DNA of 63,943 bases from Bacteroidales bacterium (GTDB lineage Bacteria > Bacteroidota > Bacteroidia > Bacteroidales > CAIWKO01), in NCBI GenBank assembly GCA_018004645.1, contig JAGNBV010000003.1:1-63943 (forward strand), given 5' to 3'. The position numbers and the translations under genes are program-made. Shown piece by piece: positions 8,192 through 34,062 of the stretch. The notes beneath the pieces were generated by a model. It searched no databases, was not told where the DNA came from, and saw only the letters and a list, made by a program, of their open reading frames with translations. The first letter of the stretch is position 1. Each line of letters begins with the position of its first letter.

Positions 8192-8199
8192 TACCTTTG
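8192..8199 (+). promoter_or_regulatory. Candidate -7 box (TACCTTTG) for ribE
   Basis: TAnnTTTG match 26 nt upstream of the ATG at 8225. No clear -33 TTTG at canonical spacing. Confidence 0.3.
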
Positions 8200-8224
8200 C
8201 AGGAAACAATAAAAACCAAAAACA

Positions 8225-8836: not shown

Positions 8837-8911
8837 TCTAGCCTTGCCTGTTTGTAAATGACGATTGAAATTAATGAAACTGTGTGGACACTGCGGGCAG
8901 CAGGTCGGATA

Positions 8912-9295
8912 GATTTTTGAAGTGAAGGGCCACTTTGTAAATCATCATCCGTTGATCGATGTTCGATATTAAAAGGAATTCAGTGATGTATGAATTTCGA
9001 TTGACGAGTTTCGATTTTTGAAGTACTGGAATCATCAATCGTTAATCGGTGTTCGATCTTAAAAGGGATTAAGTGATATATGAATTTCGATTAGCATTGC
9101 CTACGGCAAGCAGGGATTTTAGATTTTTGAAGTGATATGCCACTCTTAAATCATCATTCGTTAATCAATGTTCGATATTAAAAGGAATTTAATGATGTAC
9201 GAATATCGATTGAAGAATATCGATTTTTGAAGAAGAAACTTCTTAAATCATTCTTCGTTGATCGGTGTTCGATATTTGAATTGATGAACATGCTC
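8912..9295. repeat. Intergenic tandem repeat, four units of ~100-109 bp
   Basis: Units anchored on GATTTTTGAAG begin at 8912, 9013, 9122 and 9222. The shared core is AAATCATCATYCGTTRATCRRTGTTCGATMTTAAAAGGRATT...GATGTAYGAATWTCGATT. The array lies in the convergent gap between the ribE stop and the helicase stop. Confidence 0.85.
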
Positions 9296-9297
9296 TT

Positions 9298-13124: not shown

Positions 13125-13259
13125 TGGCTTATGGTAACATAGAATTAATAAGTGGTAAGCTGCTGGTTTATAATAAAAAAATTTTGCAGTTATTGTTTTT
13201 ATGAATATTTTTATACCTAAATCAAACGATGATATAAATGTCCATATAATTACTTGATT

Positions 13260-18777: not shown

Positions 18778-20340
18778 CTACTTCGTGGGTTTTACTTTTT
18801 CCCACGGCCCAATATCGTATTTCTTAATCATCTGCCGGTAGGTATCGGCATCCCCGATTATTTTTTTGATGTGATTATGATAGCTGGTCATGGATAGTAT
18901 ATGGGAGAATCCCATGTCGGTAGCCACTTTTTTGCGCAGGATGAGGGAAATCATGTAGTTATAAAACTTTCGCTTATATGGTTCCGGTCTAAAGGCATAC
19001 TCTTTGAATAGTTTTGCCAGCAGTCTGATCACAAAGCCGGCGCCAGGTTTCCCATCATTGTATGGCTTGCGAAAGTATCCATCGCCAAAAAGCACGCTGG
19101 CCTTTTTATACAATGATTCAAAAGAATATATTTTGGTAAGCGTTTCGAGATATTTGTCAAACAAATCAATCTGCGACATCTTATAGTAATGGATGCAGGG
19201 AAACAAACCGCCCATCATGTCGGTGTCGATATCGTACATACGGCCTTCGGCGGTAAGCCTTTTTTGCAGCTCTGAACCGTAAGGTGCACCAAGAATATTG
19301 AAGTTTACATAAGAGAGTCCTGTGCGTTGCGTAAACTCGTACAGGTGGTCAAATTCTTTCGCGGTATCATTGTCAAAACCAATTACAAAAGAGGCCGTGA
19401 TATGTATGCCATGAGAATGGATTTTTTTAATGGCGTCCTCGTAGATCAGGGCGTCGCGGTTTTGCTTCTTTTTGGTTTCGAAAAGGCTGCCTGCATTTAA
19501 TGATTCAAAACCAATAAGGATATTAAAACATCCGGCATTGTTCATCGCGGTGAGTAATTCTTCTTCGCGGGCAATTTCGATGCTCGACATACAGCCCCAT
19601 GAAATCTTCAGCGGGGCCAATGCTTTCATCAGGTCGTGGGCGTAACGTTTATTGGCGGTGAGGTTATCATCCACAAACAGCATTTTTTTTACCGGCAGGG
19701 ATTTTATTTCTTCCACCACGTTGGAAATTTCGCGGTAACGCATTTTGTGCCCAAACAGGTTGGTGACCAGGCAGAACTCGCACTTGTAAGGACAACCGCG
19801 CGAAACCTGAATGCCTACCTGAAACACCTTTTTCATATCTACCAAATCCCAGCGGGGGATGGGTATTTCTTTAAAATCAACGTATTCGCCCGAATTGTAA
19901 ATTTTTTGCAGTGCTCCCTGTTCAAAATCCTGCAGGCATTTTTGCCAGGCGCTTTCAGCTTCGCCAACCACAACAGCATCGGCATGTTTGATGGCCTCAT
20001 CGGTCATAAAGGATACGTAAGGCCCTCCGATAATTACTGTAGCGCTTTTTGACCTGTACCAGTCGCCGATTTCATAGGCTCTTTTTGCTGTGGTAGCCAG
20101 TGTGGAGATGCCTACTATTTCAGGAATTTCTTCGGGCAAAGGTTCAAGTTCTTCATCTATGATACGCACCTGGTATTCGGGGGGAGTAATGGCTGCAATC
20201 ATAGGCAAGGCTAGGGATACCATAAACTTTTTTTTGCCCATCATTTTGCAGAGTTCGGTCTGCCCGTAATAATTTACATATTTCTGTCCGGGCATGACCA
20301 GAAAAATTCTTTTTGAGCTATGTGTCTTTCCGTCGGTCAT
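18778..20340 (-). CDS. Cobalamin (B12)-binding-domain radical SAM enzyme (class B), long form
   Basis: N-terminal B12-binding-like domain (IVGISTLATT...VIIGGPYVS...VVVGEAE). Radical SAM cluster motif CPYKCEFC. ATG at 20340 preferred; the TTG at 20349 would overlap the KASIII stop by 4 nt. Confidence 0.8.
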   Translation of the reverse strand: MTDGKTHSSKRIFLVMPGQKYVNYYGQTELCKMMGKKKFMVSLALPMIAAITPPEYQVRIIDEELEPLPEEIPEIVGISTLATTAKRAYEIGDWYRSKSATVIIGGPYVSFMTDEAIKHADAVVVGEAESAWQKCLQDFEQGALQKIYNSGEYVDFKEIPIPRWDLVDMKKVFQVGIQVSRGCPYKCEFCLVTNLFGHKMRYREISNVVEEIKSLPVKKMLFVDDNLTANKRYAHDLMKALAPLKISWGCMSSIEIAREEELLTAMNNAGCFNILIGFESLNAGSLFETKKKQNRDALIYEDAIKKIHSHGIHITASFVIGFDNDTAKEFDHLYEFTQRTGLSYVNFNILGAPYGSELQKRLTAEGRMYDIDTDMMGGLFPCIHYYKMSQIDLFDKYLETLTKIYSFESLYKKASVLFGDGYFRKPYNDGKPGAGFVIRLLAKLFKEYAFRPEPYKRKFYNYMISLILRKKVATDMGFSHILSMTSYHNHIKKIIGDADTYRQMIKKYDIGPWEKVKPTK

Positions 20341-20345
20341 ATCAA

Positions 20346-21455
20346 TCAATAATAACGAAGTGTAAAACCAGCCTGCATAAATTTGCTGACTTCAGTAACA
20401 AAACTTATGATCAGGTCGTTTGGGAAAAGCTTTTCTTCCCTTAAAATCTTGTCGAGGCAGATGAAAACCATAGGAGGGCCTATATAGCCCATATCGTTCA
20501 TCCGGGTGTAGAGGGACTCTTTTTTTATTCCGAGTTGTCCGCATTCTTCGATAATCATCTCGGCTATATGTTTTGACGGGAAGTTGACCTGGAAGAATCT
20601 TAATGTGCTAAGGTCGATACCGTATTTTTCAATCATGCGTTTCAGGCCTTTGTAAAACACCGAGCCGTCGTCATCATGAAAATGCATGCGCAGTTGTTCG
20701 TTAAACATCTGTGCCAGGTGATGATCGCCGTTTTCGAACTCTTGTTTGGGGTTTTGCCAATAGGCGGGACGATGGTTGAGCATAGCCGCAGGTTTCTTAC
20801 CGCCGACAGATTCCATAAACACATTTTCAACGAATAATCCTTTATGGTCTGTGGCTTTTTGCAGTACCAGCGCTCCTGCGCCATCGCAAAGGAAATACCG
20901 CAGAAACAATTCTTCTTTTTTCAGTAAGGGCTGATTGTAATACTCCGCTATTAATTCTGAGGAGGAAATGCCCGATGAGACCACCAGCGCGTTATCGTAT
21001 CTGCCCGATTGTATGAACTCATAAGCGATCAGCAGGGCTTTGTAGGCGGAGGTGCAGTTAGCATGTATTGATACTTCAGCACAATACTCAATGCCAAGAG
21101 CTTCCTGTATCCTGACGCTGGCCGTAGGCATCTGGTGCTGATGTGCGCTGCCATAAGCGATAAATTGTATGTCTTCAGGTTTCATTCGGGCCATGTCAAG
21201 AGCCTGGCGTGCTGCCTTGACGGCCATGGTTACATTGTCTTCGGTAAACTTGCGGGTTTCGGGATCGATGGCATAATGATAATATCCGATATCAAGCATT
21301 TCTTTCATCACCGGCCTGATACGTGAAAGCCATCTGCTTACAGATGCCGGAGCGTCTGTTATTTCACCCAGGTAACGGTCGGTTTCTTCAAAAGGAACCG
21401 CCTTGCCTGGCAAAAACCTTCCCGTTCCTGTTATTTTAACCCTGTGATCTGACAT
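20346..21455 (-). CDS. KASIII (FabH)-like thiolase-fold condensing enzyme
   Basis: 369 aa. Candidate Cys-His-Asn triad (HANCTSAY; FPSKH; MNDMGYIGPP). FabH/type-III-like size and layout. Confidence 0.75.
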   Translation of the reverse strand: MSDHRVKITGTGRFLPGKAVPFEETDRYLGEITDAPASVSRWLSRIRPVMKEMLDIGYYHYAIDPETRKFTEDNVTMAVKAARQALDMARMKPEDIQFIAYGSAHQHQMPTASVRIQEALGIEYCAEVSIHANCTSAYKALLIAYEFIQSGRYDNALVVSSGISSSELIAEYYNQPLLKKEELFLRYFLCDGAGALVLQKATDHKGLFVENVFMESVGGKKPAAMLNHRPAYWQNPKQEFENGDHHLAQMFNEQLRMHFHDDDGSVFYKGLKRMIEKYGIDLSTLRFFQVNFPSKHIAEMIIEECGQLGIKKESLYTRMNDMGYIGPPMVFICLDKILREEKLFPNDLIISFVTEVSKFMQAGFTLRYY

Positions 21456-22114
21456 TATTTCGATTTTAAAAATTTCCCGACATAATAGTTTCTGAGTTCC
21501 GGGTTATAATTGTCATAAATTTGCCGGGCAAAGTTAACTGCTTTTACGATAATTTCATCTTTCCTGACCACCTTGTCGATAAGCCCCAATTGTTCAGCTT
21601 CTGATACATTCAGGTTGTTTCCTTTAAGCATCAGTTCCATCATAGTTTTTTTTCCTGTAAATTTTGAAAGATAAACAGAACCACCGCATCCGGTCATCAG
21701 GTTGAAGCTTGCTTCGGGAAAACCCAGCATAATATTTTCGGCAGCGATGCGAAAATGGCAGGCCATGGCCAGTTCCATGGCAGAGCCGATACACACACCT
21801 CTGATGGCGGCAATGACAGGTATTTTAGCTGCATGAAACCTTTTAAAGGTGAGGCTGTTTGCCATGTAAAAATCTTTAGCCTGTTGCGGATCCCTTGTGT
21901 CAAACGATAACAAATCCCTGATATCAGCTCCGGAGGAGAAATGCCTTCCTGCACCGCTTATTATGATCGCTTTCACGCGTTCATCATTCAGGATCTTATC
22001 TGTAAGTTCACGGATCTCATAGAAGAAAAGCTTGTTCATGCTGTTAGCCGGAGGGCTGTTCAGTTCAATGAACCCGATATTATCTTCAAAACGCCAGTTT
22101 ATACTTTGGTACAT
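21455..22114 (-). CDS. Enoyl-CoA hydratase/isomerase (crotonase) family protein, short (219 aa)
   Basis: Oxyanion and acid motifs ISGAGRHFSSGADI, CIGSAMELA and GFPEA. The stop overlaps the KASIII start as TAATG. Confidence 0.8.
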   Translation of the reverse strand: MYQSINWRFEDNIGFIELNSPPANSMNKLFFYEIRELTDKILNDERVKAIIISGAGRHFSSGADIRDLLSFDTRDPQQAKDFYMANSLTFKRFHAAKIPVIAAIRGVCIGSAMELAMACHFRIAAENIMLGFPEASFNLMTGCGGSVYLSKFTGKKTMMELMLKGNNLNVSEAEQLGLIDKVVRKDEIIVKAVNFARQIYDNYNPELRNYYVGKFLKSK

Positions 22115-22863
22115 TACAATGATCCGGATTTTCTTCTTGCGGCTTCTTCCTCAGCCAGTTCGCAGAACATAAGTGTTTCTTCATGCAGTGCTTCGTGCAG
22201 CGGGAGCTTATAGGCATTATGGATTGACTGCATAATAGAAGCGATCACCTTTTTAGGTTTTGACTCAAGCATACTATTCAGATATTTCAATGAATATTCC
22301 AAAACATTTTCTTCCGTCAGTTGATGTACTACATTTAATTTTAATGCTTTTTCCGCATCGAAAATTTCTCCTGATAATACATTAGCTATGGCTGCATAAG
22401 TTCCTGACTCTTTTACCATCCGCACGATGCCACCCAAACCGGGCAATAATGCGGAATTTATTTCAGGAAACGCAAAAAGAGCTTTTGCCGAAGCAAACCG
22501 TATATGGCACGACAGGGCAATTTCCAGCCCTCCGCCCCAGCAAACACCATTTATTGCCGCGATGACAGGGATTTTTAATTCTGATATTTGTTCAAGCAAT
22601 TCCGAGCCGGCTGTCATTTCTTGTTTAAGAATATCAGGATATTTTACCAGCTCAAAAAGGTTTTCCAGGTCGGCGCCGGCTGAAAAGTGACGCCCTGTGC
22701 CGGTGATGATTATCCCTTTTATTTCCTGGTCATCAGCGATATTGTACAATAGTTCTTTGCTGATAAAGGAAGGAGATTTCAGATAGTTTTGCGGGGGGCT
22801 GTTTATTTTCAACACTGAAATACAGCCTTTTTTTTCGATAAGGATATTAGCTGATTGGGACAA
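22114..22863 (-). CDS. Enoyl-CoA hydratase/isomerase (crotonase) family protein
   Basis: ITGTGRHFSAGADL, CWGGGLEIA, AFPEI. TTG start 2 nt after the thioesterase stop. Its own stop overlaps the next start as TAATG. Confidence 0.75.
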   Translation of the reverse strand: MSQSANILIEKKGCISVLKINSPPQNYLKSPSFISKELLYNIADDQEIKGIIITGTGRHFSAGADLENLFELVKYPDILKQEMTAGSELLEQISELKIPVIAAINGVCWGGGLEIALSCHIRFASAKALFAFPEINSALLPGLGGIVRMVKESGTYAAIANVLSGEIFDAEKALKLNVVHQLTEENVLEYSLKYLNSMLESKPKKVIASIMQSIHNAYKLPLHEALHEETLMFCELAEEEAARRKSGSL

Positions 22864-22865
22864 TT

Positions 22866-23258
22866 TCAGTTGTTTTTGGCGAGTAATACTTCGTATTCCT
22901 TAGCAAGGCCGCAGGGCACCCTGTCCTGATTCAGCGGGATGGTTTTAACGGTGGTGTGCGAAATCTGAATATTATCATCTTCGTTGAACATATACTGTTT
23001 AAAGACGATGTATGGCCCCGAAAATTCCACCTTGCTTTTGATGAGAATATTGTCGAACAAACGGGCTTCTTTGGAATACCTGATATTGATTTCGGTAACT
23101 ACCACCAGAATTTTTTCGTTCTGTAGTTTTTCGAGGAGGCCGGTTTCTTTCATAAGCTGCCAGCGGGCCTGTTCGTAGTAGTTCAGGTAAACGGCATTGT
23201 TAACATGGTTGTATGAATCCAATTCATAGCCACGTACCGATAATCGATATTCAAACAT
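22866..23258 (-). CDS. 4HBT/YbgC-type hotdog-fold acyl-CoA thioesterase
   Basis: 130 aa. RGYELDSYNHVNNAVYLNYYEQAR is the typical 4HBT N-terminal motif. Confidence 0.7.
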   Translation of the reverse strand: MFEYRLSVRGYELDSYNHVNNAVYLNYYEQARWQLMKETGLLEKLQNEKILVVVTEINIRYSKEARLFDNILIKSKVEFSGPYIVFKQYMFNEDDNIQISHTTVKTIPLNQDRVPCGLAKEYEVLLAKNN

Positions 23259-23296
23259 AATTTAATTTATGAATTCGGTAATGCGATTTTTCCGCA

Positions 23297-23698
23297 TCAG
23301 GATTTGCTGTTTTGTATTAAATTATCAACTTTTGCTTTTTCTATCTGGCTCCATTTTGGGTCGGTAAATTTGGAGCCGGTCCATGCAAAGTCAACCTGAA
23401 AAAAACTTTCATTTAAAAATGTCAGTTTTGATTTAGCATCCGGTGTGTGCACGATAAAAATTACCTTGTCATGGTCAATGGCAAACTCGGAGCATATTTG
23501 TGTTGCCAGGGGTGCGCAGAAATTTGTTACCGAGGTGCCGGGGTTTTCAGCGTAGAGTTCGGTGGCAATGATAATGGTTTGCCCGTTGTTTTCCACAATT
23601 TTAAGTCCGCAGCGTGAGGGGGCATCCCATTGGCCTTTGAAATCGTATACTTCAGTAAAATATTCAGAATTATTTTCGTTGTTGAAATGCTTAATCAT
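23297..23698 (-). CDS. Hypothetical 133-aa protein embedded in the cluster
   Basis: Clean ATG ORF on the same strand, 21 nt after the rSAM stop and 38 nt before the thioesterase start. I recognise no motif. Confidence 0.4.
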   Translation of the reverse strand: MIKHFNNENNSEYFTEVYDFKGQWDAPSRCGLKIVENNGQTIIIATELYAENPGTSVTNFCAPLATQICSEFAIDHDKVIFIVHTPDAKSKLTFLNESFFQVDFAWTGSKFTDPKWSQIEKAKVDNLIQNSKS

Positions 23699-23719
23699 AA
23701 TACCAGGTGAGCTTTTTGA

Positions 23720-24994
23720 TTATCTAATTACTTTTTTCCCAAAACTGCTTCTTGATAATTCTTCGCGTATGGGTTTGTAGGTGCCATTGGCGATTTCTTT
23801 CATGATGACCGAGCGGAAAAGCTTAAACATTTTTTCCGACTGGGTTTCATCTTTGTAAAAAGTATCCCATGCATAATGGTACAATTCCTGGAGTTTTTCA
23901 GGAGTCATCTGTTTAGGCTGAATGACCACTTTACCGGCGTTGTAATTATTCCAGTCCTTATCGATGATGCGGTTTTGCCTGAGCATGTCGTCGTAAGCTT
24001 TGGTGTGTGGGAAGGGCGTAAGTACGGTAAATTCGGCCAGGTCGAGGTTGACTTCGAGCAGGAAGTCGATCAGCCGTTTAATGTCGTCTTCAGTATGGTC
24101 GTCGGTTCCCAGTAGGATAGTGCCTTCTACCGCGATTCCATGGTCGTGGTAACGTTTTATTCTGTTTTTGATATAGTCCGAAGTATCGAATACGGCCTGA
24201 TATACAAACCATGCTCCGGCTTGTGCCGCCATGTCGAGTACTTCATCGTCGTCTTCAATAGGGTGGGAGCACCAGTTTTTCTTGAAGGGGATCATTTCGC
24301 GGAAGAGGTCGAGTTCCCATTGTTTATCCTGTGCCAGTGAGTTGTCCACGATAAACAGCCTGTTGTTATCGATGGTGGCCAGTTCTTCAACCACCTTGTC
24401 GATGGGGCGCGGCCTGAAGCATTTTCCTCCGAGGTAGGCTACAGCGCAAGGGTAGCAGTTGTATTTGCATCCACGCGAAGCATGGAAAAGGTCCACCATA
24501 CGCACTCCTTTGTGGTAGTATTTTTCCGTGTTCAGAATACTTCTGCGGGCAGGGCCGATGGTATTGATATCAGGGTGTACGGTGAGGTAATTATAAACTT
24601 TCTGCAATTTATTGTTGGCAAAATCCTCAAAAACTTTTTCCATACGTCCTTCGGCTTCACCAAGAAATATTGAATCGGCATATTCCAGAGTTTCCTCGGC
24701 ATGCAGCATGGTGGATATCCCGCCAAAAATCACTTTTTTGCCCCGCTTACGGTATTCGGTGGCAATTTCCCATCCGCGTTTTATCTGGCTCGTTAGCATC
24801 ATAGAAATGCCAACAAAGTCAACATCATTGTTAAAAATAACTTCGTCTACATTTTCGTCCGTAAATTCCACATCAACATAATCGGGTAAGGCGGCAGCCA
24901 TAACTACCGGGCCATGTGGTGGCAGATTAAAAGTGGTTTGTCCTTCGAGTTTTTCCCATTTAGGGTAGATAAGTTTGAATTTTATGCGTTGCAT
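23720..24994 (-). CDS. Cobalamin (B12)-binding-domain radical SAM enzyme (class B), short form
   Basis: FVGISMMLTS...VIFGGISTM...IFLGEAE B12-binding-like domain. CKYNCYPC radical SAM motif. Clearly paralogous to 18778..20340. Confidence 0.8.
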   Translation of the reverse strand: MQRIKFKLIYPKWEKLEGQTTFNLPPHGPVVMAAALPDYVDVEFTDENVDEVIFNNDVDFVGISMMLTSQIKRGWEIATEYRKRGKKVIFGGISTMLHAEETLEYADSIFLGEAEGRMEKVFEDFANNKLQKVYNYLTVHPDINTIGPARRSILNTEKYYHKGVRMVDLFHASRGCKYNCYPCAVAYLGGKCFRPRPIDKVVEELATIDNNRLFIVDNSLAQDKQWELDLFREMIPFKKNWCSHPIEDDDEVLDMAAQAGAWFVYQAVFDTSDYIKNRIKRYHDHGIAVEGTILLGTDDHTEDDIKRLIDFLLEVNLDLAEFTVLTPFPHTKAYDDMLRQNRIIDKDWNNYNAGKVVIQPKQMTPEKLQELYHYAWDTFYKDETQSEKMFKLFRSVIMKEIANGTYKPIREELSRSSFGKKVIR

Positions 24995-25073
24995 GGATTA
25001 GAATTTTTCTTAGTTTATTAATAATCTGTTTAAGTATCCAAATGATGTAGTCATCTGCTTGTAAAACGGAGTG

Positions 25074-25081
25074 CAAAGATA
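25074..25081 (-). promoter_or_regulatory. Candidate internal -7 box (TATCTTTG on the minus strand) ahead of the core sub-operon
   Basis: The plus-strand CAAAGATA is the reverse complement of TAnnTTTG. It lies 80 nt upstream of the ATG at 24994, inside the 210-nt gap. Confidence 0.25.
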
Positions 25082-25204: not shown

Positions 25205-26704
25205 TCAGGTGTTATTAATTTTTTCCACCAGATATTTCATTCCAAGCAGTTCGGCACAGGTAGTTACCGAGCCAATAGTAACGCCCAGTACGCCGTGGAG
25301 AATAATGCTCTGGCCGGTAAGAAAGAGGTTGGGTATTTTTGTCCTCGGCATGATGAGAGTCTTCAGAGGTTCGTGGCAATCCTTGGCCACGCCATAAATA
25401 GAGCCGTCCACTGTACCGGTATAATCCCGGAAAGTCAGCGGACTGGAGGTGTAATATTTTTTAATGGTACTGCGGAAACCGGGGAAGCGGATTTCTACGG
25501 TGTCGAGCAGTTGTTCGGCTTTTTGCTGTTTAAAGGCCTGGTAATCATCACCACGGTGTTCAATAGTGGTATGTTCCCATCTTCTGACTTCATCCATTGA
25601 CATGTACGTAAGGATGGTAGCGCAGTCGGCAAAATTTTGCTGTTGTTCGCTTGAAGGCGTGATCAGCAGGTAGTTATTGGGCCAGCCTTTTCCGCGGACA
25701 TCATGCGAATACCATACGTTGTTGTTTTTATAGTAATATACGTTATGGTTCAGGTATTCGAAGGCGTCTTTTTTAAAGACTATATACATGATGAAATTTG
25801 ACGTGGTATTTTCCAGATTTAAGATACGTTCCCTGTAGGCGCTGCGGATTTTTGTCCTGTCAACCATTTCAATGGTTTTTGCGGGGTGTATGCTGGAAAT
25901 AATATTGGTGGCAAAAAACGATTCGCCATTGGTGAGTTTTACGCCGGTGAGTTTTTTGTTGTCAAAAATAAATTCCTCTACCTTGGATTTTTTAAAAATA
26001 GTGCCGCCATTTTCAATTATGGATTCTGCAAGGATAGTAGCTATATGTGAGCTGCCTTTCACCACCCGCCACGAGCTTTCGATAAAAGAATTATTGACCA
26101 GGGCGTGGACATACAGCGGGGTTTTTTCGGGTATGCCTGCATACAACGGGTTGCTCCCGGCGAGCACATTTTGTAATTTGCGGTTATGTGTAACCGATCT
26201 GATATAATCGAAAGCATTTTCCGAAAACAACTGAAGCTCTGACACCTGAAATTCGTTTTCTCTTATGCTGTACAGCGGAAAATGATTGCAAATATCTTTC
26301 AGCTTGCCGACATATTTTTCCAGTTCCTTTCTTTCGGACGGAAAATGGTGGCAGAGGCCATCCACAAAATGCTCATGCCCCATGGCAAACTTGTATTCCA
26401 CGGGATCTCCGGCAAAATTGATGGTGTCGAAACCATTTGCATCCATGCGTTTCAGGTCCAGTTTGTCCATCAACCCGAAGTACTTAAAATAACGGTTCAG
26501 CACCTGGCCTTCGTCCAGGCCTCCGATGAAATGAACGCCGGTATCGAACACGCAATTATCGCGGGTAAAATTCTGCAAACAGCCGCCAATCTGGCTATGT
26601 TGCTCAAGTATGCAGACTTTCATTCCCTCCCTGCTCAGGATATAGCCGCATTGTAAACCGCCAAGGCCGCTGCCGATAATGATGACATCAAATTTATTAT
26701 CCAT
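25205..26704 (-). CDS. NAD(P)/FAD-dependent oxidoreductase of the phytoene-desaturase (CrtI-like) family
   Basis: N-terminal dinucleotide fold DVIIIGSGLGGLQCGYILSREGMKVCILEQHSQIGG. About 500 aa. C-terminal FLTGQS typical of this family. Confidence 0.75.
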   Translation of the reverse strand: MDNKFDVIIIGSGLGGLQCGYILSREGMKVCILEQHSQIGGCLQNFTRDNCVFDTGVHFIGGLDEGQVLNRYFKYFGLMDKLDLKRMDANGFDTINFAGDPVEYKFAMGHEHFVDGLCHHFPSERKELEKYVGKLKDICNHFPLYSIRENEFQVSELQLFSENAFDYIRSVTHNRKLQNVLAGSNPLYAGIPEKTPLYVHALVNNSFIESSWRVVKGSSHIATILAESIIENGGTIFKKSKVEEFIFDNKKLTGVKLTNGESFFATNIISSIHPAKTIEMVDRTKIRSAYRERILNLENTTSNFIMYIVFKKDAFEYLNHNVYYYKNNNVWYSHDVRGKGWPNNYLLITPSSEQQQNFADCATILTYMSMDEVRRWEHTTIEHRGDDYQAFKQQKAEQLLDTVEIRFPGFRSTIKKYYTSSPLTFRDYTGTVDGSIYGVAKDCHEPLKTLIMPRTKIPNLFLTGQSIILHGVLGVTIGSVTTCAELLGMKYLVEKINNT

Positions 26705-26810
26705 AAACGCCTGGTTCCTTTGTGTAGAATATTCTAAAAGGTTGAAACTGATGAGTCGTTAATACATGCACGAATGTGAACGATAATGACACAACATTAA
26801 AATCCGGATG

Positions 26811-26818
26811 CAAAGATA
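26811..26818 (-). promoter_or_regulatory. Candidate internal -7 box (TATCTTTG on the minus strand) ahead of the oxidoreductase gene
   Basis: The plus-strand CAAAGATA lies 107 nt upstream of the ATG at 26704, in the 199-nt gap. Confidence 0.2.
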
Positions 26819-26903: not shown

Positions 26904-29900
26904 TTATTTTTTTATTAAATACAGGGTGTTGGAGGTTATCCTTGGATTTTTTATTATCTGAACATTTACATTCAGTGATGCTGCAATATCCGCCAGTCTT
27001 GCTGCCGAAAAGAAATGAAGTTTGTCGTTTGCGGTTTTGTTAAACCCAAAATTTGTAGACATAAACTCTGTCCATCGTGTTTTTCTATGTTGCCGTTCAC
27101 TGTCTTTATTCGCATCCCTGATCAAAATTATTCCCCCCGCATTCAGCCTGTCAACGCATTGGTGCAGTATGCCGAACTGATTTTCGGGAGTCAGGTAATG
27201 CAGTACATCGCTCAGAATAAAAACATCGCTATTCCCAAATTCATAGCTGGTGATATCTTCGTGAGAAAACATAACATTAGGCGGTTTTGACAGGCAGTGT
27301 GAGGCTACATCAATTTTATCCCTGTCGTAATCTATGGCCACAATTTTCCTTTTGGGCGATACCCAGGCCAGCATCATAGATAAATAGCCATAGCCGCAGC
27401 CAATGTCTATTATACGGGCATCGCGCGGAATGATGTCGTTGTATTGGCTATAATTATTCTCCAATTTTGATTTTATCCGCGTGTACCATTCCAAAACCGG
27501 GCCTTTGTAAATAAAGTTTTTTATTAAAATATCGCGGTATAGTCTGGTGTCACTGTAATAGTCGTTTAAGAGCTTTTGGTGCTCCTGTCTGAAATGATGC
27601 TGAATATTTTTTGTCCGTTCGGTGTAATTGGCCCCCATGGCAGTATCGCCGGGTTTTATTCGGTCGAGAAACTTAACGGTTATCAGGCTTTTTTTGCCAA
27701 GTAAGTCATCTTTGGCAATATAGTTGCCCGTGCCGTGGCTCACAATGGGCAGGATATCCATGTGAAGCTGTTCTGCTAAATAAAAGGCGCCTTTATGAAA
27801 ACGCCCGATATGCCCGTCGGTAGAGCGGGTTCCTTCAGGAAAAATTATGACGGAATATCCTGCTTCGGCTACCGGTTTTATTTTTTGGGCTATAACGTCA
27901 TACCCCAGTGATGCAGGTAAGAAACCTCCCAGTTTCACAATGATGCCTATCAGTTTAGAATTGTAAAACGCATCGTTGGTAATCATGATGACTTTGGGCG
28001 AAAACATCAGGAATAACGGAATGTCAATGATCGACTGGTGGTTGGCGATGATAACCGCCGGCTCTTTCAGCGTGCCGGGAGTAAAGTTGATGATTTTCTT
28101 TTTGGTGAAATACATGAGATACATGGTTGACCGGCAAACCCCGTACAGGGTCTGATGATACAACAACTGTCTTTTCTTTTTTGAAACGGGCAGTACTTTA
28201 TAGATGGTAAGTCCCAGCAGGGCTGTGATGATGCATCCAAGCAGAAAGTAAGTGTAACACACCACGGCATAACTAATACCGTAAGCGGTAAGAGGAAATT
28301 TCCGGAACTTGTTTTTTTTGTAAACCAATACGCGGAATAAGGCAGGAGCAATGGTGTACGAGCAGAAAACCACGGAAAACATCCCGATAATTGTGAGCAG
28401 TGCGATAGAACGCAGGGCAGGATGTTTGGCGAATATCAATACGCCTATGCCAACAAACATGGTAAATGCCGACAGTAATACTGCTGTTTTGTAGGAGTCA
28501 AGCAGGTCGATTCCTTTTTTATACTTTTGAAGCAGGCCGTCCATGATAAATATACTGAAATCATCGCCCAGGCCGAAGATAAAAGCTGAAATGATGATAC
28601 TGAAAATATTAAATTTTATATGGAACAGGCTCATGAAGCCCAAAATCCACACCCAGCTGATCAGCATGGGGATAAATGCCGTGATGGCGAGTTCTATACG
28701 GCCATAAGAGATTAACAGGAACAAAAAAACCAGCAGAGATGAAATGAGAAGTATCGTATTAAAATCTTTTTTGATGATTTCAATAAACTGAGTCAGGATA
28801 TTTGAGGGTTCCACCACCAGGGTATTCGTAGTTTCAGGGATGGCGGCCAGCACCTGATCATACCTTTGGTTTTTTATTTTCAACGGGCTAAATACGTAGT
28901 TGTTCTTTTCATCATGATGGATATAGGGTTGGGCAAAATGTTCTTTGAGCCATCCAAAGTCTCCTGGACTAATGCATGAATAATTCTTATCGAGAAGTGA
29001 ATAAAAATCATGGAAAGCATCCTCGCTAAAGTCGTATTGGCGGGCGCTTTCGGCAAGATGGTTTTTTGTGTTTTGCCTGCGTTTATTATTCCAGAATTCC
29101 TTCCACAGACCTGCCTTAACTTGCTGCATCGAATCGGAGGGCAGGAGGGGGGAAACGCTCTGGATTTGACAAAACGCTTTGGATAGCTTCAAATCCATAA
29201 TTTTTCTGCAGGCATTTTCGTTGTGTTGCAACGCGGCGTTCAGGTTATCTCCTTTGCTGATCAGGAAAACCTGGCGTGAAGCATCTCCCGAAATATGCTG
29301 AAGAGTAGTTTCGGCCTGTCTCAGTTTTTCCGGGGTGTAGCCGAGTGTATTCATGTCGGTTTCAAAGCCGGGTTTCCCGGCCATAAAAAACAAAAACACC
29401 GTGATGACAGCCAGAGCCACTATCAGATAAGGATTCCGTTCGGGGTGGTAAGCCGATATCCTGTCGATGATATTCGTCTTTGAAGGGCCGCCTGTTTCCT
29501 CATTCTTGTGTTTTATTATGAAAGGCAAAAATATCAAGGTACACAGTACCGACCCCAGCAGGCACATCGCAGCGGCCAGGCCGAAATCGTTGAGAACTTC
29601 CGACCTGACAAACAAGAGCCCCAAAAACGCGCCTATAGTGGTTACGCTGCCAAGTGTCAGCGGCAAAGATAAGTCTTTGATGACCTGTCGGACCGAACCT
29701 GTATGACGGTAATGCGAAAAAAAATGTATGGAATAAGTCAGCGCCACGCCAAGGATTATTGATCCGGCTCCCAGAGCGATGAGCGAGATGTCATCGTTAA
29801 GCAGCGACAGGATGGCCATGGAAAACAGACCGCCAAAAACCACCGGTATCAAAACCAGGATGAAAGTGGTTTTTTTGCGAAAGAACACACTGAAAAAAAT

Positions 29901-30752
29901 GAATAATATCAGTATCGCAATACCCAGGGTAACGACCACGTCTTTCTTTAGTTGCACGGAGTTTCCCACGGAAGCCGCTACCGTTCCGTAATACTGTATG
30001 GTAAGCGATTCCCTGCCGGTATTTGCCTTATGCTCCCGGATGATATTGTCAAGTTCTTTGATGAGCTTTTTGTTATGAAAACTTTCGTTGGCGGGATAAC
30101 TGGATTGAACAAACATCAACAGGTGGCGGAGGTCCTGCGAAAAAATATGGTTTTTATAAATCCTGAAATTGCTGCCAATGCCAGGCATGCGCATTTTTTC
30201 CATTGCCAAACTGCCAATGTTGAGCGGGTCGCTGACAATTTGTTTTTTCAGGAAGGTTCCGGCAGGGGAAAGCAGTAGTTTATAGTTGCTGAGCATTACC
30301 GAGTCAATATGTTCCGGAGTCAGCATTTTCTCTATACGATCATAATCTTCTCTGTCAAGGAAAAAAGGAAGATTTCTGAGAATTAAATCATAGGTGCCGG
30401 CAAAATAATTGTCGTCAAACTTGCAGGTAATATTTTTCACCATACCCTGAACCTGCAGGTTTTCGAGGTTCCGGTTGACTTCTCCGGCATAGGAAATAAG
30501 TTTGTCGGGATCAGCTTCAGGATTGTTATCCGTAAGGATAATACCAAGGTCGTTCCCAGAATTTACCATGCGTAACACCTCATGAATATTTTCAGTAGCT
30601 TTTGTTTTGGGTAAAAAATCGGTGATGTCTTCGCTGACCCTTATTCGTGTTGCCATAAACAGAAAAAACGCAACTAAAAGAAACAAAACCACAAATAACA
30701 AAAACCTTCGTTGCCTGAAAAAATCATATATTTTAAGAAATATAAAACTCAT
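26904..30752 (-). CDS. Three-domain fusion of an MMPL/RND-like exporter, a PlsC-type acyltransferase and a class I SAM methyltransferase (1282 aa)
   Basis: About 830 N-terminal aa form two TM bundles separated by large soluble loops, which is exporter-like. HX4D motif ANHQSIIDIP (about nt 28025-28045) and FPEGTRS (about nt 27826-27845) mark the acyltransferase. IIDIGCGYGYLS (about nt 27385-27412) is methyltransferase motif I. Confidence 0.7.
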   Translation of the reverse strand: MSFIFLKIYDFFRQRRFLLFVVLFLLVAFFLFMATRIRVSEDITDFLPKTKATENIHEVLRMVNSGNDLGIILTDNNPEADPDKLISYAGEVNRNLENLQVQGMVKNITCKFDDNYFAGTYDLILRNLPFFLDREDYDRIEKMLTPEHIDSVMLSNYKLLLSPAGTFLKKQIVSDPLNIGSLAMEKMRMPGIGSNFRIYKNHIFSQDLRHLLMFVQSSYPANESFHNKKLIKELDNIIREHKANTGRESLTIQYYGTVAASVGNSVQLKKDVVVTLGIAILILFIFFSVFFRKKTTFILVLIPVVFGGLFSMAILSLLNDDISLIALGAGSIILGVALTYSIHFFSHYRHTGSVRQVIKDLSLPLTLGSVTTIGAFLGLLFVRSEVLNDFGLAAAMCLLGSVLCTLIFLPFIIKHKNEETGGPSKTNIIDRISAYHPERNPYLIVALAVITVFLFFMAGKPGFETDMNTLGYTPEKLRQAETTLQHISGDASRQVFLISKGDNLNAALQHNENACRKIMDLKLSKAFCQIQSVSPLLPSDSMQQVKAGLWKEFWNNKRRQNTKNHLAESARQYDFSEDAFHDFYSLLDKNYSCISPGDFGWLKEHFAQPYIHHDEKNNYVFSPLKIKNQRYDQVLAAIPETTNTLVVEPSNILTQFIEIIKKDFNTILLISSLLVFLFLLISYGRIELAITAFIPMLISWVWILGFMSLFHIKFNIFSIIISAFIFGLGDDFSIFIMDGLLQKYKKGIDLLDSYKTAVLLSAFTMFVGIGVLIFAKHPALRSIALLTIIGMFSVVFCSYTIAPALFRVLVYKKNKFRKFPLTAYGISYAVVCYTYFLLGCIITALLGLTIYKVLPVSKKKRQLLYHQTLYGVCRSTMYLMYFTKKKIINFTPGTLKEPAVIIANHQSIIDIPLFLMFSPKVIMITNDAFYNSKLIGIIVKLGGFLPASLGYDVIAQKIKPVAEAGYSVIIFPEGTRSTDGHIGRFHKGAFYLAEQLHMDILPIVSHGTGNYIAKDDLLGKKSLITVKFLDRIKPGDTAMGANYTERTKNIQHHFRQEHQKLLNDYYSDTRLYRDILIKNFIYKGPVLEWYTRIKSKLENNYSQYNDIIPRDARIIDIGCGYGYLSMMLAWVSPKRKIVAIDYDRDKIDVASHCLSKPPNVMFSHEDITSYEFGNSDVFILSDVLHYLTPENQFGILHQCVDRLNAGGIILIRDANKDSERQHRKTRWTEFMSTNFGFNKTANDKLHFFSAARLADIAASLNVNVQIIKNPRITSNTLYLIKK

Positions 30753-30758
30753 GCTGCG

Positions 30759-31586
30759 CTAAGGTTGGTTATTGGTGGGATTTTTTGCAGTTTTTTTTTG
30801 CCGGGTAGCAACATCGAACGTCATTTTTTTCTTTATAAATTTCAGCAGTGCTAAAGGTTTAATAATAAAGAAAGCTAAAAAAACCAGTATCGTGTTTAAA
30901 ACGCTTATTCTGAAAAAATCGCTGAACGGCCTGAAGTGCGAAACACGTTCACCGGCCGGTGGATAATAGACACTCACAGGGATGGGTATGGTCCTGATGC
31001 CACTCCAGGCCGAACGTACCAGCACTTCCACTTCAAATTCATATTTCCGGCCAAAAAATCTTTTTTTGTGTAACAGGTACAAGGGATAGGCCCTGAAGCC
31101 TGATTGCGTGTCGGGCAGTTTACGGCCGGTTTCAATATAAAACCAGAAGTTCGAAAACTTATTGCCAAAACTGTTTTTTGCCGGCATGTTTTCCGTTTGC
31201 AGGTTCCTTGACCCGATGATGATTGCTCCAGGCACTTCCATTATTTTCTTCAGAAAAGCAGGCAGGTCGGATGCGAAATGCTGTCCGTCGGCATCTATGC
31301 TTATCCCATACCGAAAACCCATGCTATGTGCATACCTGATGGCTTTTCGCAGCGCATAGCCCTTGCCTTTGTTTTTTTTATTATCCAAAATATGAATGCC
31401 GGAAAAGCTTTCCAGAATCTTCCCTGTTTTATCGGTCGATCCGTCGTTAACAACGATGATGTTGCCCGTGTATTCAAGCACCTCCGACAATACCTTGCCG
31501 ATGGTGCCGGCGTTGTTATACGTCGGCATAATCACACAACAGTGCAGTTCATCGAAAACAGCTTTTATGTCAGCCAGGTCATCCAT
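30759..31586 (-). CDS. Family 2 glycosyltransferase (polyprenol-phosphate glycosyltransferase-like, C-terminal TM helix)
   Basis: VIMPTYNNAGTI, VVNDGSTDKT, SIDADGQH (DxD). The ATG at 31586 gives an 8-nt overlap with the upstream gene. The track TTG start at 31619 would overlap by 41 nt. Confidence 0.75.
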   Translation of the reverse strand: MDDLADIKAVFDELHCCVIMPTYNNAGTIGKVLSEVLEYTGNIIVVNDGSTDKTGKILESFSGIHILDNKKNKGKGYALRKAIRYAHSMGFRYGISIDADGQHFASDLPAFLKKIMEVPGAIIIGSRNLQTENMPAKNSFGNKFSNFWFYIETGRKLPDTQSGFRAYPLYLLHKKRFFGRKYEFEVEVLVRSAWSGIRTIPIPVSVYYPPAGERVSHFRPFSDFFRISVLNTILVFLAFFIIKPLALLKFIKKKMTFDVATRQKKTAKNPTNNQP

Positions 31587-33252
31587 CGGTTGCGCAGGTT
31601 TTTTTTTCACAAAGATCAAGGTGTTTGCGGATTTCCTCTTTCTCCTTTTTGGTAGGGATTTCTTTTTGGAGGGCTATACGATAATAAGAAGTTGCATGTG
31701 TATAGTCTTTTCTCCTACGGAGGTAATCGCCGGCGGTGCTGTAGGATAAAAAGTATTCAGGGTTAAGGCCAATCATTTCTTCAATCAAAGCATTCACTAT
31801 GCCTTGATTTTCATGAGTTGCGAGCAACTCTTTCCTAATTTGCTTGAATCTTTCAAATTTCTCAAATTCTCCGTTGGTCAGCATGGGATCGCCCGGTATT
31901 ACAAGGGTTTCTGTGATTATATTACAGGTATCCTTGATGGATGAGGGCTTCCCGAATACCGTATTCAGGTCATAACATAAGAATTCTCCAAGGTTGAACG
32001 GCCCTGATGAAACCCACATTTTTAATTCGCCGGGCTTGAAAATGATGGCGTGATGGGCCAGCAGCTGGTTAAGGGTGTATTCGTTGCCGTTACCTATCGG
32101 CTTATCCTCCAACCCTAGGCGATTTCTTAGTATCCCTACGGCTTTTTCAACTGTAATTTGCCCGCTTCGTTCAAACAACTCACGGGTTCTTTGGTACCGG
32201 TACATTGAGGCCGTATCGTTGATCTGCCGTATGTTCATCGGGTCTTTTTTAAGGGCCTCCGACTGAAAGTGGTTGGTGCAGATAATCTGGCCGTTGTCCG
32301 GTTCAAAAATTTCGGTCCGGTAAGGAGTTTTTTCGATAATCAGTGCTTTGTTATCCCTGCCGGAGCTTACCAGAAAAGATTCGGATACTGAAATTCTGCG
32401 CTTGCGGGCAATTGCCACGGCCTCTTCGATAGTGCCGGCATATTGCAGCATTTCCCTGACCAGTATGGTAACCGGTGTGGAGATACTGCGGGGCATTTTT
32501 GATTTGGCTGCATTTACCGTAATGGCCAGACCTTGCATATTCATGCCCGAAACTGTTCCTACCAGGCCGCCCCAGGTGATCATGGCGAATTTGTTGCCCC
32601 GGTCGGGCGCGTAAAAAGAAATAATTTTCTCTTTGCAAAACTCATCACCGGCGTAAAAATCAAAATTCCGTGCATGTAACAGGTTGCCGTCGGGCGTGTG
32701 TTTTCCTGAAGCAACAAATGCTGTGCACCCGACCAGGTTGATATTCACCAGGGCGTGGGCTATATCGTGAGCCGCATGGTAATTGAGTATGCGCAAATAA
32801 GCAGGGCCTATCATCCGGAACCTGGCTGATGCCGAAAGAGAAACCCCGTAAATTTCAAGATCGTATTCCTTGCTGATATTTCCCTTTAACTTGCGGTTCA
32901 TCCATAAAGAAACAATTTTAAGAAACTGAAGGTAAAAGTTGTTGGGTATCCTTCTTTTTATCTCTTCAATAAAAAGGTTTTCCTGAGTATAGATCAGCTT
33001 TTCGGTCAGCCGGCCATTAATGATGCCGCGCTCATAAGGCGCTCCTTCAATGTACATTTCATAAAGCCCTCTCGAATTGAGGTGGCACCAATTATTGCCC
33101 AATTGAAGCATACGGTCGGATTTTTGCACGGGCTGATAATCGGTCAGGTCTGTGGCAGGAACCGCCGGATGCCTTTTGTAAGCACGTAAAAAATAAATTA
33201 GAATCACAGCAACAGTCAGCAGTAACAGGCCAATAAGTATATTCAATACCAT
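31579..33252 (-). CDS. C45-family (acyl-CoA:6-aminopenicillanic-acid acyltransferase-like) Ntn-hydrolase-fold protein with an N-terminal TM anchor and a C-terminal TPR-like tail
   Basis: N-terminal TM helix. LVG-CTAFVASGKHTPDGNLLHARNFDF fits the Gly-Cys autoprocessing/nucleophile site of C45/Ntn enzymes. The C-terminal YLRRRKDYTHATSYYRIALQ is TPR-like. Confidence 0.55.
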   Translation of the reverse strand: MVLNILIGLLLLTVAVILIYFLRAYKRHPAVPATDLTDYQPVQKSDRMLQLGNNWCHLNSRGLYEMYIEGAPYERGIINGRLTEKLIYTQENLFIEEIKRRIPNNFYLQFLKIVSLWMNRKLKGNISKEYDLEIYGVSLSASARFRMIGPAYLRILNYHAAHDIAHALVNINLVGCTAFVASGKHTPDGNLLHARNFDFYAGDEFCKEKIISFYAPDRGNKFAMITWGGLVGTVSGMNMQGLAITVNAAKSKMPRSISTPVTILVREMLQYAGTIEEAVAIARKRRISVSESFLVSSGRDNKALIIEKTPYRTEIFEPDNGQIICTNHFQSEALKKDPMNIRQINDTASMYRYQRTRELFERSGQITVEKAVGILRNRLGLEDKPIGNGNEYTLNQLLAHHAIIFKPGELKMWVSSGPFNLGEFLCYDLNTVFGKPSSIKDTCNIITETLVIPGDPMLTNGEFEKFERFKQIRKELLATHENQGIVNALIEEMIGLNPEYFLSYSTAGDYLRRRKDYTHATSYYRIALQKEIPTKKEKEEIRKHLDLCEKKTCATDG

Positions 33253-33300
33253 TCCATTATCTTTAGCTTACAAAATTATCTTTTTTTGGATTGCCGCTGT

Positions 33301-34062
33301 TCAAAAATCACCTTGATGGTACTGTGCGCTGAGCTGTTTGAATTCAGTACGCATTAGCCGCATGACATTATCAGTGAGTTCCTGGTAAGTGGCGCCATAT
33401 CCGGGACTTTCCACGGTTACCGGATCAAGAAATTTTACTAAGACATCACCGTGCTTGAGGTAAAACCAGCTTTTTTTCAGTATTTGCGGCGAATAAAATA
33501 TCACTACGGGCTGTATGTCCATCCTGAGTTTTTCTGCAACAAAAAATCCTCCTTTGTGAAAACGCGATATCGTTCCGTCTTTATTCATTTTACCTTCGGG
33601 AAATATCAGTAACGGACATCCCATTTTTACAGGTGTCCTGAGCTCTTCAACCAGCAGTTTTTTTTCTTTGTAAATAGAAAACAGGTTTATATATTTTGTA
33701 AGGAAAAACCTGGCCCAGACATTATCATGCCAGTTGTTGTTGAGTACACAAACTTTTGAATCGAAAGCCGTAGTAACCACTACATCGGTAAACGACTGAT
33801 GGTTGCATACTATCATTACCGGCTTATCAAAGGTATTTTTCTTTTTATTGATATATCGTACCCGGATATTAAAATGCGTTTTAATCACAAAGCGTGCATA
33901 CCCTACTAACAGCCGGGTGTAAAAATCATCAGCTTTCTTTTTTTTGTGTGTAAAAGGCGCAGGAATCAATAAGGTAAATACCTGTGAAGTGATGATGAAA
34001 ATTATAAACGAAACCAGTCCTTTGAAGAGTATCAATAGTTTTTTTAGTTCTTGTGTTGCCAT
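33301..34062 (-). CDS. PlsC/LPLAT-family lysophospholipid (1-acyl-glycerol-3-phosphate-type) acyltransferase
   Basis: TM anchor, HX4D motif CNHQSFTDV, and the FPEGKMN motif. Confidence 0.75.
   Translation of the reverse strand: MATQELKKLLILFKGLVSFIIFIITSQVFTLLIPAPFTHKKKKADDFYTRLLVGYARFVIKTHFNIRVRYINKKKNTFDKPVMIVCNHQSFTDVVVTTAFDSKVCVLNNNWHDNVWARFFLTKYINLFSIYKEKKLLVEELRTPVKMGCPLLIFPEGKMNKDGTISRFHKGGFFVAEKLRMDIQPVVIFYSPQILKKSWFYLKHGDVLVKFLDPVTVESPGYGATYQELTDNVMRLMRTEFKQLSAQYHQGDF

Follow-up and report, generated by a model that had tools for sequence, protein, structure and literature searches.

Two radical S-adenosylmethionine (SAM) enzymes with B12-binding-type domains bracket a group of acyl-thioester genes in the genome of a Bacteroidales bacterium (assembly GCA_018004645.1), which raises the question of whether the pair acts in succession on one molecule or whether two separate systems happen to adjoin. 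We analysed a 63,943-nt stretch of contig JAGNBV010000003.1 (positions 1 to 63,943; hereafter the window), in which the genes concerned form a minus-strand unit of seven running from 24994 to 18778. The initial annotation had given exactly this span, from the stop of one open reading frame (ORF) to the start of the other, and both peptides that it quoted are present in the ORF translations. It had read the two enzymes, here called rSAM-A and rSAM-B, as a duplicated pair inside one operon. Our analysis points to a different arrangement, in which two conserved modules stand side by side within a flexirubin/aryl-polyene-like outer-membrane lipid/pigment cluster of an uncultured, probably anaerobic member of the Bacteroidota. 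We prefer this reading to the others considered below, and hold it tentatively, with somewhat less than even confidence.

rSAM-A is encoded by the first gene of the unit (23720..24994, minus strand; 424 aa, ATG start) and rSAM-B by the last (18778..20349, minus strand; 523 aa, TTG start with an ATG three codons in). They do bracket the other genes as originally described, with a 133-aa protein, a thioesterase, two crotonases and a protein resembling ketoacyl synthase III (KAS-III-like) encoded between them. Pfam and alignment also agree with the description of both proteins as having a B12-binding-type N-terminal domain followed by a CxxxCxxC motif. rSAM-A matches PF02310 (B12-binding) at 37.0 bits (cut-off 32.1) and PF04055 weakly, at 19 bits; rSAM-B matches PF04055 at 53 bits, PF02310 at 30.2 bits, just under the cut-off, and PF13282 (DUF4070) at 29.9 bits (cut-off 22), so that its B12-binding-type and radical SAM domains are followed by a C-terminal DUF4070. 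The cluster motif is CKYNCYPC in rSAM-A (residues 176-183) and CPYKCEFC in rSAM-B (186-193), and its three cysteines are invariant across a joint alignment of 29 sequences. The VxxGG and GEAE motifs are likewise invariant in both families, and SRGCxxxCxxC is conserved. The two proteins had been said to align convincingly by eye; BLASTP bears this out with an alignment of 398 columns at E 3e-41 (27% identity, 46% positives), which is far beyond chance. The remark that the C terminus of rSAM-B is about 100 aa longer is roughly right: of the total difference, 99 aa, about 71 aa are C-terminal (the DUF4070 helices), 20 are N-terminal and 8 are net internal. The internal differences include a deletion of about 15 aa in rSAM-A, relative to rSAM-B, after beta-strand 4, the strand itself being kept ('FVYQAVFDT' in rSAM-A, 'FNILIGFES' in rSAM-B).

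Related Bacteroidota clusters hold four families of radical SAM proteins with a B12 domain; besides A and B, one is TIGR04072-like and one HpnR/BchE-like. In BLASTP across these clusters, comparisons between A and B give 135-165 bits and comparisons of either with the other two families 30-95 bits, and A and B are thus sister families. Their conservation is unequal. Among the matches listed, the 120 orthologues of rSAM-A share 73-100% identity with the copy in the window (6116 proteins score E<=1e-10), whereas rSAM-B orthologues drop quickly to 50-60% identity. On these comparisons, A and B are old sister orthologous groups and not recent duplicates. The idea of a duplicated pair within one operon does not hold for two old groups that differ both in conservation (at least 73% versus 50-60% identity) and in distribution. 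A real local duplication, unlike the A/B pair, is present at another locus (L005, 8413-11581, from the metagenome-assembled genome (MAG) GCA_037133915.1), where two tandem rSAM-B copies (524 and 526 aa, sharing 54% and 62% identity with the protein in the window) follow the KAS-III-like gene.

In public records both families go by no more than 'radical SAM protein', 'YgiQ family' or 'hypothetical protein'. Neither enzyme reaches the cut-off of any curated NCBIfam family, among them the class B equivalogs for HpnJ, BchE, HpnR, PhpK, the MCR Gln-methylase, AprD4, BzaD and TIGR04072. The best NCBIfam scores of rSAM-B, given as bits against cut-off, are 92/578 for HpnJ, 92/600 for PhpK, 76/481 for BchE, 74/360 for TIGR04072 and 52/500 for AprD4; those of rSAM-A are 63/251 for TIGR04013, 53/360 for TIGR04072, 45/481 for BchE and 29/500 for AprD4. 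The initial annotation had named membership of both proteins in a well-characterised orthologous group unrelated to lipid or polyketide chemistry, or loss of the cluster-ligating cysteines, as grounds for abandoning its proposal. We found neither, the NCBIfam scores lying far under the cut-offs and the cysteines being invariant.

We assembled genome contexts from exact-protein look-ups and tblastn mapping. Pattern scans of genome and metagenome contigs with the rSAM-B alignment mostly returned, among the matches listed, paralogues of 27-39% identity from many phyla, the useful loci being L007-L009, L091, L092 and L116. Three architectures are found. Both modules occur together, as in the window, at L091, L007, L005 and the place of protein P0023 (architecture T3). 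rSAM-A and the 133-aa gene occur with no five-gene cassette at L087, L172 and L174 (T1). The cassette with rSAM-B occurs with no rSAM-A orthologue at L003/L004, L171 and L173, which are aryl-polyene-like clusters, and at L175, where the five genes stand alone (T2). Because each module is found without the other at separate loci, the bracketing in the window results, on this comparative evidence, from two adjoining modules, and A and B are probably not a pair carrying out consecutive steps. Two successive radical steps on the same scaffold, as first proposed, are therefore not implied by the bracketing. The relatives are MAGs of Bacteroidales, Lentimicrobiaceae and Rikenellaceae, and a desulfoferrodoxin gene lies beside one related cluster; both are consistent with the anaerobic lifestyle suggested earlier, for which the support is circumstantial.

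The first module consists of rSAM-A and the conserved 133-aa protein (23297..23698, minus strand), whose gene lies directly downstream of rSAM-A in each of the eight distinct loci examined; in the window the gap between the two genes is 21 nt. The protein has an invariant signature, G.W...S.CG.K ... NPG.S.T, and is without any Pfam or NCBIfam match. Its confident AlphaFold2 (AF2) model (pLDDT 86) gave no significant match in a fold search of the PDB (best E 0.015, TM 0.33 or less). The family is large: a profile search recovered 1461 cluster representatives, of which most are 110-150 aa long and stand alone. A small number of distant, longer relatives are fused to DUF6166, their only other domain, and no fusion to a radical SAM protein was found among the best 150 profile matches. 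In other genomes this module lies among genes for acyl carrier protein (ACP), ketosynthase (KS), a tyrosine-ammonia-lyase-like protein and a FlxY-type CoA ligase, beside a CrtD-like flavoprotein. The L087 and L172 clusters encode ACP, KS and chain-length factor (CLF), LolA, an ApeI-like protein, a GT2 glycosyltransferase, an MMPL-acyltransferase and the CrtD-like flavoprotein, and their CoA ligase scores above the threshold for FlxY (FlxY_rubin 717 versus 520), as does their LolA for LolA2_flexi (161 versus 125). At L174 the pair lies between ACP genes, with an aromatic amino-acid lyase, KS, ketoreductase (KR), phosphopantetheinyl transferase and MAT nearby.

The second module begins 38 nt downstream of the 133-aa gene and is tightly packed, the gaps from thioesterase to first crotonase, second crotonase, KAS-III-like gene and rSAM-B being +2, -1, -1 and -4 nt. 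Its first gene (22866..23258, minus strand) encodes a 130-aa hotdog acyl-CoA thioesterase of the 4HBT, YbgC/FadM type (PF13279, PF03061; TIGR00051 67.9 bits versus a cut-off of 68.7), which remains with the cassette even where this stands alone. The next gene (22114..22863, minus strand) encodes a 249-aa enoyl-CoA hydratase/crotonase, ECH249 (PF00378, E 1.5e-35), and the third (21455..22114, minus strand) a short enoyl-CoA hydratase of 219 aa that is without the C-terminal helices and aligns to profile positions 2-193 of 251 only (PF00378, E 1.1e-36). Two glutamate motifs contain the catalytic residues of true enoyl-CoA hydratases, and both are present in each protein (GLEIAL and FPEIN in ECH249; AMELAM and FPEAS in the 219-aa protein). 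The best PDB matches of ECH249 are genuine enoyl-CoA hydratases, and the 60 matches listed are named hydratases, isomerases, dehydratases or multifunctional fatty-acid-oxidation enzymes. Judged by these residues, both crotonases look catalytically competent.

The fourth gene of the cassette (20346..21455, minus strand) encodes the 369-aa KAS-III-like protein, which had been taken for a condensing enzyme. StlD/DarB are its best-scoring families, although the family cut-offs are not reached (NF005293 StlD/DarB 118 bits, cut-off 450; DarB NF053539 91 bits, cut-off 550; FabH 83 bits), and in the PDB it matches StlD (5gk0) best, with an end-to-end alignment at E 6e-18. In an alignment of seven family members with StlD and E. 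coli FabH, the active-site cysteine (HANCTSAYK) is conserved, the histidine position is Asn or Ser depending on register ('VNFPSKH') and the asparagine position is Tyr ('MGYxGPPM') in seven of the seven family members. With two of the three catalytic residues replaced, the protein is not a canonical condensing enzyme; the Cys-His-Cys set of thiolases and the Cys-His-Asn set of KAS enzymes are both missing from it.

Of two other readings of the cassette, we rejected the first and set the second aside. The first is the HMG-CoA-synthase beta-branching cassette (HCS, ECH1 and ECH2): HMG-CoA synthase models cover only about 95 residues around the cysteine, at 25-46 bits against cut-offs of 244-360. 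Because the crotonases resemble true hydratases and keep both glutamates, and because the KS-like protein is not like HMG-CoA synthase, this assignment is ruled out. The second is a DpgA-D-like system, in which a type III polyketide synthase and two crotonases build a dihydroxyphenyl ring; the KS-like protein is without the His and Asn for malonyl decarboxylation, and its chalcone-synthase matches are weak.

The KAS-III-like gene precedes and adjoins that of rSAM-B in 11 distinct loci, the exceptions being L001, which has a 57% identical protein and no KS, and the more distant L008 and L009. At L001 no cassette accompanies the rSAM-B-like gene (10001-11593), whose neighbours are a 243-aa hypothetical gene on one side and an amidohydrolase gene on the other, with a TetR-KAS-III fusion gene 8 kb away. 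The coupling extends to single polypeptides, since P0073 (901 aa) fuses the KAS-III-like protein to rSAM-B and P0099 (867 aa) fuses rSAM-B to 3-hydroxyacyl-CoA dehydrogenase (3HCDH), which is also encoded by the next gene in L171 and L173. In the cassette-only clusters L003, L171 and L173 a protein of about 130 aa with a Haem_bd domain, not encoded in the window, follows rSAM-B/3HCDH (for example, L171 12927-13319).

Both enzymes had been described as class B and therefore as needing cobalamin; the need for cobalamin is not established. For both, the best PDB sequence match is AprD4 (6fd2), at E 1.2e-11 and 1e-3, and the AF2 model of rSAM-B (pLDDT 88) has AprD4 as its top fold match (E 8e-20, TM 0.64/0.73). 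Despite its Rossmann-like domain, AprD4 is among the enzymes that do not bind cobalamin (2026 review, PMC12931638); the nearest solved relative thus shares the domain plan yet binds none. The rSAM-B model also superposes on the cobalamin-bound OxsB, CysS, MgmA, TokK and TsrM, which rank after AprD4. A scan of the window at Rfam gathering thresholds detected no cobalamin riboswitch and no other RNA, and Pfam searches of its ORFs detected no cobalamin genes. The B12-type domain is real, and the actual use of cobalamin by either enzyme stays putative.

Upstream of the unit, the surrounding genes agree with the lipid/polyketide-like context that had been proposed for both enzymes. A CrtD/phytoene-desaturase-like FAD oxidoreductase (25205..26704, minus strand; PF01593, PF13450; TIGR02733 128 bits versus a cut-off of 550) adjoins rSAM-A here and, by synteny, in L005, L007, L087 and L172. 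Beyond it, Pfam and NCBIfam identify on the minus strand an MMPL/RND-type exporter, LPLAT and SAM-dependent methyltransferase fused in one 1282-aa ORF (26904-30752), a GT2 glycosyltransferase (30759-31619), a C45-family acyltransferase (31579-33252) and an LPLAT acyltransferase (33301-34062). This anchoring and export set (26904..34062) recurs beside the rSAM modules in L003, L087, L172 and the P0023 place. The flexirubin/aryl-polyene export and anchoring components (MMPL, LPLAT, GT2, thioesterase and methyltransferase) are therefore present, and the same MMPL/acyltransferase/GT2-type gene set has been proposed to export the pigment in the flexirubin cluster (PMC3992019). Related loci with rSAM-A or rSAM-B do encode KS/CLF, ACP, KR, dehydratase, starter lyase/ligase and LolA-type proteins. 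Several details of these genes vary. The triple fusion also occurs in L003 and the P0023 place, and the L087 and L172 version is without the methyltransferase. The L172 cluster is syntenic except that an inserted restriction-modification set (two N6_N4 methylases and a MjaI-type endonuclease; 5817-9940) separates the CrtD-like gene from rSAM-A. In the window, the GT2 gene as listed begins at a TTG that places 41 nt of it within the C45 acyltransferase gene; on identical contigs the product is called as 275 aa, and the true start is probably 11 codons downstream.

A 210-nt gap separates the CrtD-like gene from rSAM-A and contains a possible Bacteroidetes-type -7 promoter element, TATCTTTGCA (25072..25081, minus strand), about 77 nt upstream of the rSAM-A start. 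It fits TAnnTTTG, which we take to be the Bacteroidetes -7 consensus. The identical 10-mer is found at 26809-26818 (minus strand), in the gap of about 200 nt upstream of the CrtD-like gene. Five of the seven matches of this type in the window are intergenic and correctly oriented, with a total that is not enriched over shuffles. The element hints at a separate promoter. Counts from a sigma-70 promoter and terminator scan of the window equalled those of shuffles, the model being uninformative for Bacteroidota.

How might two such modules function? The comparisons above show the domain architecture, the paralogy, the separability of the modules, the fusions and the lack of membership in curated families, whereas the substrates and products named here are predictions. 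rSAM-A and its 133-aa partner would carry out one radical tailoring step on a carrier-bound aryl/polyene or lipid branch, near the CrtD-like flavoprotein. The cassette, joined in many genomes by 3HCDH, would act on CoA thioesters of beta-oxidation-type intermediates. Its crotonases and the dehydrogenase could interconvert 3-hydroxy-, 2-enoyl- and 3-oxo-acyl-CoA, the last two of which correspond to the pair of substrates taken by DarB/StlD. These enzymes join a beta-ketoacyl and an alpha,beta-unsaturated acyl thioester to give a carboxy-cyclohexanedione, which DarA then aromatises (PMC6836626). By analogy, the KAS-III-like protein may join two chains head to head to form a dialkyl-cyclohexanedione/resorcinol-like or related product, and rSAM-B, physically coupled to it, may carry out an oxygen-independent radical step on its substrate or product, the likeliest being oxidative aromatisation/dehydrogenation (the task of DarA in aerobes) or else C-methylation. 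The thioesterase would release the product, and the upstream LPLAT, C45, GT2 and MMPL proteins would attach and export it. We favour a CoA-based head-to-head condensation module because the cassette unites acyl-CoA-interconverting enzymes, a DarB-like protein, a thioesterase and a radical SAM enzyme coupled to KS and dehydrogenase. That rSAM-B specifically replaces DarA is a far more doubtful proposal. We regard as similarly speculative the fuller version, in which rSAM-B is an oxygen-independent DarA substitute in a KS-rSAM(-dehydrogenase) complex on CoA thioesters and, separately, rSAM-A with the 133-aa protein is a new two-component tailoring system for aryl-polyene lipids.

Several observations weigh against this picture. 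StlD and FabH keep the His and Asn that the KAS-III-like family does not have, and with these residues replaced and a score far under the StlD/DarB cut-off (118 versus 450), the protein may instead be an acyltransferase or perform different chemistry. On the present evidence rSAM-B could be an aromatase, a methylase or a catalyst of other radical chemistry, and literature searches found no paper on these families, nor a product for any member. The absence of DarA/StlC was judged from cluster proteins alone: there is no DarA-named NCBIfam match among 12 of them, in a library that may hold no DarA model. A genome that shows one module at the locus compared might have the other at a different site. 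Finally, tblastn of the window at E<=1e-3 with queries from L087, L171, L174 and L003, together with Pfam searches of large ORFs, gave no match for KS/CLF, ACP, KR, dehydratase (DH), LolA, FlxY/ligase, aromatic lyase, MAT or 3HCDH. The polyene branch, if any, is encoded outside the window.

The strongest competitors reinterpret the same genes. In the model first put forward, both radical SAM enzymes are cobalamin-dependent class B methylases or cyclases that act sequentially on an acyl scaffold made by the intervening genes, for example by double C-methylation or by methylation and cyclisation. The operon-like unit with its short gaps, the sister relationship of A and B and the B12-type domain in both suit this model, as do the fold matches of rSAM-B to the cobalamin-bound methylases CysS, MgmA, TokK and TsrM that follow AprD4 and the weak HMM matches to PhpK, HpnR and the MCR methylase. 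However, the A and B genes occur independently in other genomes, the constant neighbour of rSAM-A is the 133-aa protein and not the cassette, and the best relative by structure and sequence, AprD4, neither binds cobalamin nor methylates. The top HMM matches include the non-methylases HpnJ and BchE, and no cobalamin riboswitch or cobalamin gene accompanies the unit in the window. We therefore consider sequential class B chemistry unlikely. The same grade applies to a beta-oxidation-like unit for CoA chain extension or trimming, in which the KAS-III-like protein would be a thiolase or acyl carrier that, with 3HCDH and crotonase, supplies or reshapes acyl or polyenoyl precursors, and rSAM-B would act on the enzyme-bound chain by radical desaturation, dehydration or C-C cross-linking. 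Such a unit would account for the fusion of rSAM-B to 3HCDH and for the presence of three of the four beta-oxidation activities (KS-like, 3HCDH and ECH); AprD4 is itself a radical dehydratase, and a KS-like protein with cysteine only suits an acyl-enzyme carrier. It is harder to reconcile with the missing catalytic sets of both thiolases and KAS enzymes, with a KS-like protein that is nearer to the head-to-head StlD/DarB enzymes than to thiolases, and with the absence of 3HCDH from the window by tblastn.

A third possibility, a ladderane-type or anammox/Desulfotalea-type cluster of type II fatty-acid synthesis (FASII) and radical SAM genes with both enzymes in the 'ladderane' B12-rSAM family, seems to us very improbable. 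The gene mix is alike, with a B12-type radical SAM protein, a phytoene-desaturase-like flavoprotein, a glycosyltransferase and an exporter (PMC2649909), and the related locus L003 carries a near-threshold TIGR04072 protein (480 aa, 308 versus 360 bits). rSAM-A and rSAM-B themselves score just 53 and 74 bits against that cut-off of 360, and BLASTP against the TIGR04072-like proteins of related loci gives only 29-62 bits. We rejected membership of the ladderane family on these values. The window also holds no FASII genes by tblastn, and ladderanes are known only from anammox bacteria (PMC2649909), which counts further against this reading.

Elsewhere in the window, genes for cargo of type IX secretion (Por_Secre_tail or CHU_C) are unusually dense (2088-4172, 5421-7478, 13254-18683, 34222-35382, 48582-50996 and 51590-55051). 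Sorting domains of this kind mark the host as a member of the Bacteroidota. One of these genes, for an 1809-aa protein, converges on the operon, and another, immediately upstream of the cluster, encodes a PETase/chlorophyllase-like esterase. Within the gene for a 1153-aa CHU_C/PKD protein, the segment 52001-54000 has a GC content of 0.51 against about 0.43 and a GC skew of 0.19, and tandem repeats were not detected there. No tRNA was detected in the window.

Few biosynthetic clusters of Gram-negative bacteria are as common as those of the aryl-polyene and flexirubin type, and we know of no assigned function for their radical SAM accessories. Two very widespread Bacteroidota families of such enzymes can now be separated, where thousands of related sequences are annotated just as 'radical SAM protein' or 'YgiQ', and each is tied to a defined partner, the 133-aa protein for rSAM-A and the cysteine-only DarB-like protein with 3HCDH for rSAM-B, which defines what to express for reconstitution. 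Were rSAM-B shown to be an anaerobic aromatase, or a new C-C or C-methyl enzyme of lipids, the class B-like enzymes would gain a reaction type, and the making of resorcinol-type lipids by anaerobes would be explained; should it replace DarA, a radical route would lead to dialkylresorcinol/flexirubin-type pigments of the outer membrane in strictly anaerobic Bacteroidota. If the enzymes are cobalamin-free like AprD4, they would be a useful warning against deducing B12 dependence from domain annotation. B12-domain radical SAM proteins in unusual lipid clusters, and flexirubin/aryl-polyene clusters, are of an already known kind (PMC2649909, PMC13459092, PMC3992019). The features that appear to be undescribed are both rSAM families, the pairing of rSAM-A with the 133-aa protein, a KS-like protein without catalytic His and Asn, and the KS-rSAM-dehydrogenase coupling.

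The locus can be compared with several known systems. The anammox and Desulfotalea FASII clusters, whose product is unknown or unproven (PMC2649909, PMC13459092), likewise combine a radical SAM protein with an FAD amine-oxidase-type desaturase, a glycosyltransferase and an exporter; they belong to another phylum and use other radical SAM families (TIGR04072), and the CoA-type cassette, found here without FASII genes, is not described there. With the class B, COG1032 enzymes of the BchE/HpnJ/PhpK type, rSAM-B shares the domain order of B12-binding domain, radical SAM core and DUF4070, together with the VxxGG, GEAE and SRGCxxxCxxC motifs. These enzymes are its best HMM matches, at 76-92 bits, yet the scores are 5-8-fold under the family cut-offs, the substrates (tetrapyrrole, hopanoid and phosphinate) are those of other pathways and the gene context differs. 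AprD4, a radical SAM 1,2-diol dehydratase, has the same two-domain plan of a Rossmann-like N-terminal domain and radical SAM barrel; identity is 18-19%, its substrate is an aminoglycoside, and rSAM-B has the additional DUF4070 helical domain.

Further parallels come from pigment and dialkylresorcinol-stilbene biosynthesis. The flexirubin (flx) and aryl-polyene clusters of Chitinophaga and Flavobacterium share with the window the MMPL protein, phospholipid-type acyltransferases, GT2, thioesterase and methyltransferase domain, and related rSAM-A loci carry above-threshold FlxY and LolA2_flexi. The window differs in being without KS/CLF, ACP, KR, DH, LolA, lyase and ligase and in adding the C45-family acyltransferase and the CrtD-like flavoprotein, and the term radical SAM appears nowhere in the paper on the Chitinophaga/Flavobacterium clusters (PMC3992019). 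Dialkylresorcinol forms the second half of the flexirubin pigment (PMC3992019), and DarB homologues without DarA, whose products are unknown, exist (PMC6836626). The DarAB/StlCD system pairs a KAS-III-type ketosynthase (DarB/StlD) with an aromatase (DarA/StlC). Relative to it, the KAS-III-like protein scores 118 against a cut-off of 450 and is without the catalytic His and Asn, its gene is coupled or fused to one for a radical SAM protein with a B12 domain, and its accessory enzymes are of the CoA type, not the ACP type. Several features are shared: StlD/DarB are the best family and structure matches of the KAS-III-like protein over its full length, the cassette crotonases, together with the 3HCDH of relatives, can supply DarB-type substrates, namely enoyl and 3-oxoacyl thioesters (PMC6836626), and the cassette lies in a flexirubin-like context.

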